This document shows, in pieces, positions 18,668 through 21,785 of a stretch of 64,000 nucleotides of DNA. Both the position numbers and the translations under genes were made by a program. This stretch comes from Escherichia coli. GTDB taxonomy: Bacteria > Pseudomonadota > Gammaproteobacteria > Enterobacterales > Enterobacteriaceae. Each line of letters starts with the position of its first letter. Within the stretch, counting starts at the first letter, position 1. Location: assembly GCF_044647545.1 (NCBI RefSeq), contig NZ_CP172818.1, one strand, 5' to 3'. Below the pieces are notes generated by a model, which was given only the letters and a program-made list of their open reading frames with translations, ran no database searches and was not told the origin of the DNA.

Positions 18668-18703
18668 TGCCGGATGCGACGCTTGCCGCGTCTTATCCGG
18701 CCG
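18668..18703. repeat. REP (repetitive extragenic palindromic) element
   Basis: gccggatgcgacgcttgccgcgtcttatccggcc, classic REP consensus with imperfect palindrome. Confidence 0.75.
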
Positions 18704-18743: not shown

Positions 18744-19445
18744 CTACAGTTTCAGAATTTCTTTCACAAACGGAATGGTCAGCTTACGTTGCGCGGTAAT
18801 CGACGCACGATCCAGCTGATCCAGCGTCATAAATAACGTGCGCATTTCTCTGTCGAGCCGCTTCAGCAAGAAACGCCCCACATCTTCCGGCAGTTCAAAA
18901 CCACGCAAACGCGCGCGTAACTGTAGCGCCTGCAACTTATCTTCATCAGAAAGTGGCTGCAATTTGTAGATCTGCCCCCAGTCGAGTCGCGACGCGAGAT
19001 CCGGTAATCCCAGATTCAACTGCCGCGGTGGACGATCGCCGGTGATCAACAACCGTGTTTTGCCCGATTCCAGAATTCGATTGTAGAGATCGAAAATCGC
19101 CATCTCCCACAACTCATCGCCTGCAATACACTCAATGTTGTCGATACAGACCAGCGACAAATGCTCCATACCGTCGAGCACTTCCGGAACAAACCAGGTG
19201 CGTTTATCCAGCGGGACATAGCCCACCGCATCGCCACGCTGCGACAATTCCGCGCAAGCCGCGTGCAGCAGATGGCTGCGCCCCGCGCCTTCGCGTGCCC
19301 AGAGATAGATGTAACCGCTATGTTCCTGACGCAGCACGTTTTGCAGCGCGGCCAGTAAAGAGGAGTTATCCCCCGGCCAGAAACTTGCAAAGGTTTCGTC
19401 GTCAGGAAGATAAAGTGGCAAAGAGAGCTGTGCCGGTGTGTTCAG
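18744..19445 (-). CDS. hda: DnaA regulatory inactivator Hda (AAA+), non-AUG start
   Basis: ORF track gives 248 aa from an upstream ATG; the 233-aa product begins at in-frame CTG (plus-strand cag 19443-19445), [16 protein letters not shown]... Confidence 0.85.
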
Positions 19446-19539
19446 AGATACCTCAACCAGGATTTCACAAAATCGCGAGAAGTTTACCACAGAATCCCAT
19501 GATGTTTGAACCGGGCAGCAACACTGCCCGGTCGGTACA

Positions 19540-20829
19540 TTATTTGTCTGTTATATCCGCGTCTTCTGCGTCCAGCACCACTTCTTCAGGGCGCAGCATA
19601 CTAATCAGTTTGAAGATCAAACTTAAGCCGATACCGACGATGGTCGCCAGCGCCATACCTTTCAGCTCCGCCGCGCCAATGTTTACCTTCGCGCCACTGA
19701 CGCCGATGATCAAAATAACGGAAGTCAGGATCAGGTTCTGTGCTTTGTTGTAATCCACTTTCGATTCGATCAACACACGAATACCGGAAGCACCGATGAC
19801 ACCGTAAAGCAGCAGCGAAACGCCGCCCATCACCGGCAATGGAATCATCTGGATAGCAGCAGCCAGTTTACCGACGCAGGAAAGCAGGATAGCGAAAATC
19901 GCCGCCCCGCCGATAACCCAGGTACTGTAAACACGGGTGATCGCCATCACGCCAATGTTTTCTCCGTAAGTGGTGTTTGGCGTGGAGCCAAAGAAGCCGG
20001 AGATCACGGTCGACAAGCCGTTAGCAAACATCGAACGGTGCAGACCTGGATCGCGCAGCAGATCTTTTTTGACGATATTAGCCGTTACCACCAGGTGCCC
20101 TACGTGTTCGGCAATAACCACTAACGCCGCTGGCAGAATAGTCAGAATGGCAAACCACTCGAAGCGCGGCGTATAGAGGGTCGGCAGCGCAAACCAGTGA
20201 GCATTAATAATCGGCGTGGTATCGACAATTCCCATTGCGAAAGAGAGCGCGTAGCCCACCAGCACGCCAATTAAAATCGGGATAATTGCCAGGAAACCAC
20301 GAAACAGCACGGAACCTAAAACCGTGACTGCCAAGGTGGTAATGGAGATGATGATGGTTTTGGAGTCTGGCGTTTGCCCTTCAGCCGGGAGTAAACCTGC
20401 CATACCGGCAGCTACGCCCGCCAGCTCCAGACCGATGACGGCAACGATTGCGCCCATTGCCGCAGGTGGAAACAGCACGTCCAGCCAGCCGGTCCCCGCT
20501 TTCTTCACGATAAAAGAAACCAGGCAGAACAGCACGCCGCACATAATAAAGCCGCCCAGCGCGACTTCATACCCTAACGGCAACAGTAACAATACCGGTG
20601 AAATAAAGGCAAAGCTGGAACCAAGATAAGCCGGGATTTTCCCTTTACAGATGAAGAGATACAGCAGCGTTCCTATACCGTTAAATAACAGTACAGTCGC
20701 CGGGTTAATATGAAATAAGACGGGCACCAGGACGGTTGCACCAAACATGGCGAACAAATGTTGCAAACTAAGCGGGATTGTCTGTAAAAGTGGCGGTCTT
20801 TCACTCACCCCGATAGCACGGCGCGTCAT
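19540..20829 (-). CDS. uraA: Uracil:H+ symporter (NCS2 family)
   Basis: 429 aa from ATG at 20829 ([16 protein letters not shown]...); polytopic. Confidence 0.93.
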
Positions 20830-20875
20830 AGAATTATCCTCTGTATTATGTGTTATAGGCGCTTTACTCAAAAAA

Positions 20876-20908
20876 AAGCCGACTCTTAAAGTCGGCTTTA
20901 ATTATTTT
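20876..20908 (-). terminator. Intercistronic hairpin plus T-run (attenuator/terminator) between upp and uraA
   Basis: Minus strand: gccgact-ttaag-agtcggc followed by TTTTTTTT. Confidence 0.65.
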
Positions 20909-20914
20909 TATTCT

Positions 20915-21541
20915 TTATTTCGTACCAAAGATTTTGTCACCGGCATCGCCGAGGCCCGGAATAATGTATCCGTGCTCGTTCAGTCCCTGGTCAATCGATG
21001 CGGTATACAGTTCGACGTCCGGGTGCGCTTTTTCCAGCGCAGCGATACCTTCTGGCGCAGCTACCAGTACCAGAACTTTGATGCTGCTGCAGCCCGCTTT
21101 TTTCAGCAGGTCGATGGTCGCGATAACGGAACCACCGGTTGCCAGCATTGGGTCAACGATCAGCGCCATACGCTCATCGATGTTAGAAACCAGTTTCTGG
21201 AAGTACGGTACCGGCTCCAGCGTTTCTTCATTACGGTACATACCGACGACGCTGATACGCGCGCTCGGAACGTTTTCCAGCACACCGTCCATCATCCCCA
21301 GACCGGCACGTAGAATTGGCACAACGGTAATTTTCTTACCTTTGATCTGATCGATTTCTACCGGGCCGTTCCAGCCTTCGATAGTTACTTTTTCCGTTTC
21401 GAGGTCGGCGGTCGCTTCGTAAGTCAGCAGGCTACCCACTTCGGAAGCGAGTTCGCGAAAGCGCTTGGTGCTGATATCTTGCTCACGCATCAGTCCCAGC
21501 TTGTGTTTGACGAGTGGGTGTTTGACTTCCACGATCTTCAT
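20915..21541 (-). CDS. upp: Uracil phosphoribosyltransferase
   Basis: 208 aa from ATG at 21541 ([17 protein letters not shown]...). Confidence 0.94.
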
Positions 21542-21785
21542 ACTCTTTCTCCTTTGAGGGGCAGCCACAAAAAAATCGACGGATTATACCTCCTTTCTTC
21601 AAGGCGGCAATATTATTTTCGTTGACTTTAGTCAAAATGATAACGGTTTGAGATAAAGTTATTTTGTATTCAAATGGTTATGGAAGAAGATTATTCCATC
21701 CGAAAACGATCCTTTGCCCTGGTACAAGTATTCTTTTGCCGCGCGCCTGGGGAAAAGACGTGCAAAAAGGTTGTGTAAAGCAGTC

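Follow-up and report, generated by a model that had tools for sequence, protein, structure and literature searches.

The CTG initiation codon of Escherichia coli hda: nucleotide invariance across Enterobacterales and a false upstream start that overlaps a putative promoter

The hda locus and its longest open reading frame

The analysed window is a stretch of 64,000 nucleotides of Escherichia coli DNA, in which hda is found together with the neighbour genes bepA, yfgD/arsC, uraA, upp and purM. Positions 19400-19560 of the window align to E. coli K-12 MG1655 with 100% identity. The 901-nt hda region was found in 5425 of 5426 complete genomes and is 100% identical to the corresponding sequence of many E. 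coli chromosomes. The hda coding sequence that is actually translated occupies positions 18744..19445 of the minus strand and consists of 233 codons and a stop codon; all features of the gene and its surroundings described below are given on the same strand. Its product is the DnaA inactivator Hda. The NCBIfam model of that name (NF005982) matched the protein with 476.6 bits against a cutoff of 268, covering profile positions 1-235 of 235, and TIGR03420 matched it with 281.4 bits (cutoff 194.8). In the numbering of the longest open reading frame, which is 248 aa long, the PF00308 (Bac_DnaA) domain covers residues 31-174 and PF22688 (Hda_lid) residues 182-246. The convergent intergenic region between the stop codons of hda (18744) and yfgD/arsC (18638) contains a REP-like palindromic element, GCCGGATAAGACGCGGCAAGCGTCGCATCCGGC, at approximately 18668-18702.

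The longest six-frame ORF over hda extends from 19490 to 18744 on the minus strand and encodes 248 aa. The initial annotation had assigned this ORF an upstream ATG at 19490. Its length and position are correct, but the codon that opens it (19488..19490) is GTG, and the nearby ATG (19500-19498) is one base out of frame with hda, giving an 11-codon ORF that ends with TGA at 19467-19465. Exactly 15 codons into the 248-aa ORF, an in-frame CTG is found (19443..19445), followed by AAC ACA CCG GCA CAG CTC TCT TTG CCA CTT. The TAA stop codon of uraA is located at 19542-19540 and the uraA-hda spacer thus comprises 94 nt up to the CTG. The 15-codon extension (19446..19490) runs into this spacer, as had been noted initially, and in fact falls wholly within it. 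The presence of an in-frame CTG is by itself uninformative because CTG is the commonest codon of E. coli; the signal lies in its context, namely the Shine-Dalgarno sequence upstream of it and its invariance across species, both described below.

Counted from the CTG, codons 6-11 (19413..19430, minus strand) specify QLSLPL, the sliding-clamp-binding motif; in the 248-aa form, the motif would begin after 20 residues. In the crystal structure of the Hda-clamp complex (PMC5397184), the motif is denoted 6-QLSLPL-11 and the arginine finger R153, both in the numbering of the 233-aa protein. The construct deposited as PDB 5X06 consists of a tag followed by MNTPAQ, and residues 16-248 of the 248-aa ORF are identical to the Hda sequence of this entry. 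When the profiles are aligned to the longer ORF, NF005982 matches end to end starting at residue 14 and TIGR03420 starting at residue 21. In distant homologues (40-63% identity), the motif usually lies 1-8 residues from the annotated N-terminus, three residues being the commonest distance. The 233-aa form therefore fits the general pattern and the 248-aa form does not. The arginine finger is designated R168 in older papers and R153 now, the 248-aa numbering being shifted by 15.

Annotation of the hda start

Initiation of hda at CTG is already known; it was settled experimentally in 2008 and is contained in the current reference annotation. In strain FDAARGOS_497, the RefSeq hda coding sequence (702 nt, 233 aa, WP_001307333.1) corresponds to window positions 19445..18744. 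The RefSeq hda of K-12 MG1655 (NP_416991.2, complement 2618075..2618776, 702 nt) maps to the same positions. The K-12 gene (b2496), with its CUG start and 233 aa, is the same gene as that in the window, with the same CTG, Shine-Dalgarno sequence and coding sequence coordinates, and the start itself does not differ between the two. An entry of EcoGene 3.0, citing Su'etsugu et al. 2008 (J Biol Chem 283:36118), places the hda start at CTG. In the older K-12 annotation (NC_000913.2), as reproduced in the tables of Kim et al. 2012, hda has 747 nt. The CUG start went unmentioned in three DnaA and replication reviews and in an hda suppressor paper. On the evidence presented here, we are nearly certain that hda in the window starts at this known non-canonical CTG of E. 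coli and encodes a 233-aa product.

The initial annotation had also expected automated gene callers to misplace the hda start. This applies to part of the databases: the NCBI pipeline now uses CTG and NCBI entries have 233 aa, whereas the 248-aa form persists in ENA and Logan gene calls, from which a cluster of 3510 member sequences originates. Across Enterobacterales, the annotated Hda N-termini make up a patchwork, with protein lengths ranging from 221 to 272 aa. All of these N-termini converge on a shared sequence that follows ...EV[x]; the residues EV, present in many over-extended proteins, are the Shine-Dalgarno sequence GAGGT read in frame. The supplement of a Salmonella riboproteogenomics study contained no hda entry.

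Conservation of the start region in Enterobacterales

We compared hda loci from 80 Enterobacteriaceae species (the best 80 of 413 relatives), whose Hda proteins are 92-100% identical, and from seven further genera of Enterobacterales, namely Yersinia, Hafnia, Erwinia, Dickeya, Xenorhabdus, Proteus and Serratia (loci L082-L088), giving a total of 87 species. In every one of them (80/80 Enterobacteriaceae and 7/7 other genera), the codon at the position of the E. coli start is likewise CTG. An ordinary internal leucine codon should drift, and yet no change of this codon was observed. Codon 1 is the only nucleotide-invariant one among the 37 leucine positions conserved in the 87 species; the remaining 36 employ three to six synonymous codons each and the commonest codon never accounts for more than 86%. 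When all 131 invariant degenerate positions are considered, just two are invariant at the nucleotide level, codon 1 (CTG) and codon 4 (CCG, 19434-19436). The latter may be held constant by some requirement of the initiation region immediately after the start.

A Shine-Dalgarno sequence, GAGGT (19450..19454, minus strand), precedes the CTG by 4 nt (ATCT). GAGG is found upstream of the CTG in 87/87 species. The distance between the two is fixed in 79 of the 80 Enterobacteriaceae loci, GAGG being located 1 nt further upstream in the remaining one (L081), and the seven other genera carry GAGGTG at the same distance (7/7).

This last sequence bears on the annotation of the seven genera. Positions 398-412 of their loci read GAG GTG (C/A)TT CTG AAY in all seven cases. 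The annotated start of their 235-aa proteins is the GTG, that is, the 3' end of the GAGGTG Shine-Dalgarno sequence, and the CTG lies two codons downstream. None of the 80 Enterobacteriaceae loci has a G at this position (GAGGT[A/C/T]). The 235-aa RefSeq models of the seven genera are thus probably mis-started. Taking both matters together, we somewhat favour the view that CUG is ancestral and under strict purifying selection across Enterobacterales and that the 235-aa models begin erroneously at GTG, the true start being CTG. In three distant Hda homologues whose DNA was read, the start codon is GTG; CTG therefore looks specific to Enterobacterales, as far as a sample as small as three can tell.

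The sequence upstream of the CTG behaves quite differently. Across the 80 loci, between 33 and 39 nt separate the -10 element described below from the CTG, and the lengths differ by numbers that are not multiples of three, so the frame of the extension is not kept. The nearest in-frame stop codon lies 4-14 codons upstream of the CTG in 60/80 species, and no in-frame ATG, GTG or TTG precedes the CTG before the nearest upstream stop in 46/80. Where a canonical upstream start does exist, its position varies (4, 5, 8, 9, 15, 16 or 24 codons upstream). An in-frame GTG occurs 15 codons upstream in 7/80 species and 16 codons upstream in 4/80. In 55 of the 87 species, the predicted leader is devoid of any in-frame canonical start. 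Frame-breaking indels, in-frame stops and the lack of a conserved start all indicate that the 15-codon extension is not coding; the stretch would instead be made up of promoter and leader.

Probable promoter and 5' leader of hda

An extended -10 element, TGGTAAACT (TGgTAAACT), is located at 19481..19489 of the minus strand, with TG at 19489-19488 and the hexamer TAAACT at 19486-19481. This TG is at the same time the T and the second G of the GTG with which the 248-aa ORF begins. The pattern TGnTA[A/G/C]ACT is present in 80/80 Enterobacteriaceae loci, about 36 nt upstream of the CTG, and TGnTAnnnT in 7/7 other Enterobacterales genera. For the three Buttiauxella loci, the pattern search settled on a match further along, and TGTTAGACT was identified in them by visual inspection of the locus listing. 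A possible -35 element, TTCAAA (19505..19510, minus strand), lies 18 nt upstream of TAAACT; it matches TTGACA in four of six positions and is proposed from sequence only. Extended -10 promoters tolerate weak -35 elements. A scan of positions 19300-19900 for promoter and terminator consensus sequences called nothing, neither the -10/-35 elements nor the uraA hairpin described below. The putative hda promoter was recognised solely by its conservation across species and subsequently matched to a published transcription start site (TSS).

Transcription predicted to begin approximately 7 nt past the hexamer would start at window position 19474, which equals K-12 coordinate 2618805. The SMRT-Cappable-seq data (PMC6131387, Supplementary Data 2) give precisely this coordinate, 2618805 (reverse strand), as the TSS of the operon b2496; it was transferred to window position 19474 by means of the K-12 coordinates and the 100% identical alignment. 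Seen from the mapped TSS, the TAAACT hexamer is 7 nt and the GTG 14-16 nt upstream. As the TSS is downstream of the GTG, the hda-only mRNA does not contain this codon. We infer that the TGnTAAACT element is the hda promoter. The 5' leader of the hda-only mRNA, beginning with the G at 19474, is 29 nt long (19446..19474, minus strand). When the leader together with the start region (19474-19415) was folded, z was 0.52, no different from shuffled sequences, and hence no unusual RNA structure was revealed.

The same SMRT-Cappable-seq study (PMC6131387) lists a 'novel' read-through operon, b2498|b2497|b2496 (upp-uraA-hda), transcribed from the upp promoter with a TSS at 2620909. Consequently, hda also shares a transcript with upp and uraA (19540-21568), two genes of pyrimidine salvage. 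The GTG at 19490 is present on this read-through transcript only. Downstream of the uraA stop codon, there is a hairpin (19510..19532, minus strand) with a 9-bp GC-rich stem (ACCGGGCAG/CTGCCCGGT), a 5-nt loop and no U-tract, which, judged by its sequence, would be a weak terminator at best. Read-through from upp and uraA into hda fits the missing U-tract and the negative result of the terminator scan.

The sole hda TSS of Kim et al. 2012 is based on two reads and lies inside uraA, 620 nt upstream; the start at 19474 was undetected in that study. The site in question (NC_000913.2 coordinate 2617463, roughly window position 20110) probably represents noise or a minor internal promoter. Among the matches listed for the Cappable-seq 2016 supplement, none corresponded to the start at 19474.

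Two further traits of the leader were noticed. CTG is always followed by AAC, and a TGA stop codon therefore overlaps the hda start (CUGA). In E. coli, mini-ORFs beginning with GTG at 19468 (8 codons) and TTG at 19456 (4 codons) end at this overlapping TGA (positions 19442-19468, minus strand). A mini-ORF of this kind could in principle couple its termination to reinitiation at hda. In the mini-ORF frame, TTG or ATG abuts the Shine-Dalgarno sequence in most species, and the remaining mini-ORF starts are not conserved. A candidate DnaA box in the leader, TGTGAAATC, matches TGTGNAWAA in seven of nine positions when compared by eye; it is not conserved in other genera and was ruled out.

Alternative start sites

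The initial annotation held that the recognisable Hda N-terminus begins at the in-frame CTG (19445) and that the 248-aa ORF over-extends the gene. Both statements are borne out, the true product having 233 aa and the RefSeq coding sequence, the literature, the 5X06 construct, conservation and the mapped TSS being in agreement. Three other starts have nevertheless to be weighed against the CTG. It appears highly improbable that initiation at the GTG at 19490, for instance on the read-through mRNA, supplies all or some of the Hda as a 248-aa protein. The ORF is indeed open with a canonical GTG at its beginning, the transcript originating from the upp promoter covers hda and includes this GTG, and automated gene calls frequently give the 248-aa form, which equals the older K-12 annotation. 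The GTG, however, contributes to the extended -10 element and precedes the mapped hda TSS. It has no good Shine-Dalgarno sequence, the only candidate being GGGA 4 nt upstream, and an in-frame GTG at a comparable distance (15-16 codons) is confined to the minority of the 80 loci mentioned above, indels and stops being common in this region. Furthermore, residues 1-13 of the 248-aa form have no counterpart in the family profiles, and the literature puts the hda start at CTG.

Initiation at a near-cognate codon within the leader, such as the CTG found in frame five codons before the proposed start, at 19460-19458 (238 aa), would at least be compatible with the hda-only mRNA, on which this codon is present. 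We consider it more improbable still: no Shine-Dalgarno sequence is found at a workable distance from this CTG, species differ in this region by indels that shift the frame (CCTGG as against CCCTGG or CCTGGG) and 28/80 species have in-frame stops within 4-6 codons of the CTG that is conserved. The least credible of the three starts is the TTG at codon 9 (19421-19419), annotated for some Klebsiella and Serratia genes and giving 225 aa. Hda forms of 225 aa and 221 aa are present in databases, and this TTG is the first in-frame canonical codon past the CTG in 42/80 species, but translation beginning there would delete Q6-L7-S8 of the motif that is seen bound to the clamp in the crystal structure (PMC5397184). 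Codon 9 varies freely (TTG in 43, CTG in 41 and TTA in 3 species) and is not preceded by a Shine-Dalgarno sequence. The upstream segment NTPAQLS, which such a protein would lack, is conserved as protein, and its presence is implied by the structure as well as by functional studies of the motif.

Possible role of the weak start codon

With the CTG at 19445 as the start, expression of hda can be pictured as follows. A promoter specific to hda, with TGgTAAACT (19489-19481) as its extended -10 element, would lie between uraA and hda, and transcription from G19474 would yield the 29-nt leader. The GAGGU Shine-Dalgarno sequence (19454-19450) would position the 30S subunit, and initiator fMet-tRNA would decode the near-cognate CUG at 19445-19443. 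The resulting product would be the 233-aa Hda with QLSLPL six residues from its N-terminus. The 248-aa ORF would then exist by mere chance, because a GTG of the promoter happens to be in frame.

Initiator tRNA is able to decode CUG, and IF3 discriminates against near-cognate starts. In reporter constructs, CUG initiates at about 1-2% of the AUG rate, and the codon is therefore probably a built-in throttle on the Hda level. TTG (a synonymous codon), ATG and GTG are each a single base away from CTG and represent stronger starts, but they were seen in 0/87 species. If CUG has never been replaced by UUG, GUG or AUG in the whole order, this would imply selection specifically for a very weak start that keeps Hda scarce. 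CUG thus appears to be retained to hold the Hda level low. The dose of Hda matters for once-per-cycle replication because Hda switches off DnaA after each round of initiation. The 2008 work reportedly found that hda uses a CUG downstream of the start annotated at that time; the inefficient CUG, it is said, may limit Hda to about 100 molecules per cell, and Hda with the correct start is said to be highly active.

Similar arrangements exist elsewhere in E. coli. Like hda, infC (AUU), pcnB (AUU) and yfjD (CTG) combine a near-cognate start codon and initiator tRNA with low or regulated expression. The AUU of infC belongs to the autoregulatory loop of IF3; we know of no such feedback for hda. According to EcoGene 3.0, yfjD is the second confirmed case of a CTG start. 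A further parallel is dnaA, which belongs to the same regulatory circuit and likewise has a sub-optimal start codon, GUG, on a regulator of replication initiation. A review of DnaA ascribes to dnaA, with its GUG start and poor ribosome-binding site, a 2-3-fold lower efficiency. The two genes differ in that reporter assays put the strength of CUG at about a tenth of that of GUG or UUG and that hda has a good Shine-Dalgarno sequence.

The present analysis adds a few mildly new points: no nucleotide of the CTG varies in the species compared across the order, the false GTG start shares bases with the extended -10 element, the 235-aa models are likely to be mis-started and the conserved element agrees with a published TSS. 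For practical purposes, the position of the start is important since the 248-aa form puts 15 spurious residues in front of the clamp motif. Caution is warranted with gene callers that allow only ATG, GTG and TTG, which still spread wrong Hda N-termini (248, 241, 238, 235 and 225 aa) through public protein databases. A database entry of a different kind was also encountered: one E. coli 'DnaA inactivator Hda' of 258 aa has the correct MNTPAQ start and exceeds the normal length by 25 residues. It shows 90% identity over the alignment and presumably contains a C-terminal frameshift or extension.
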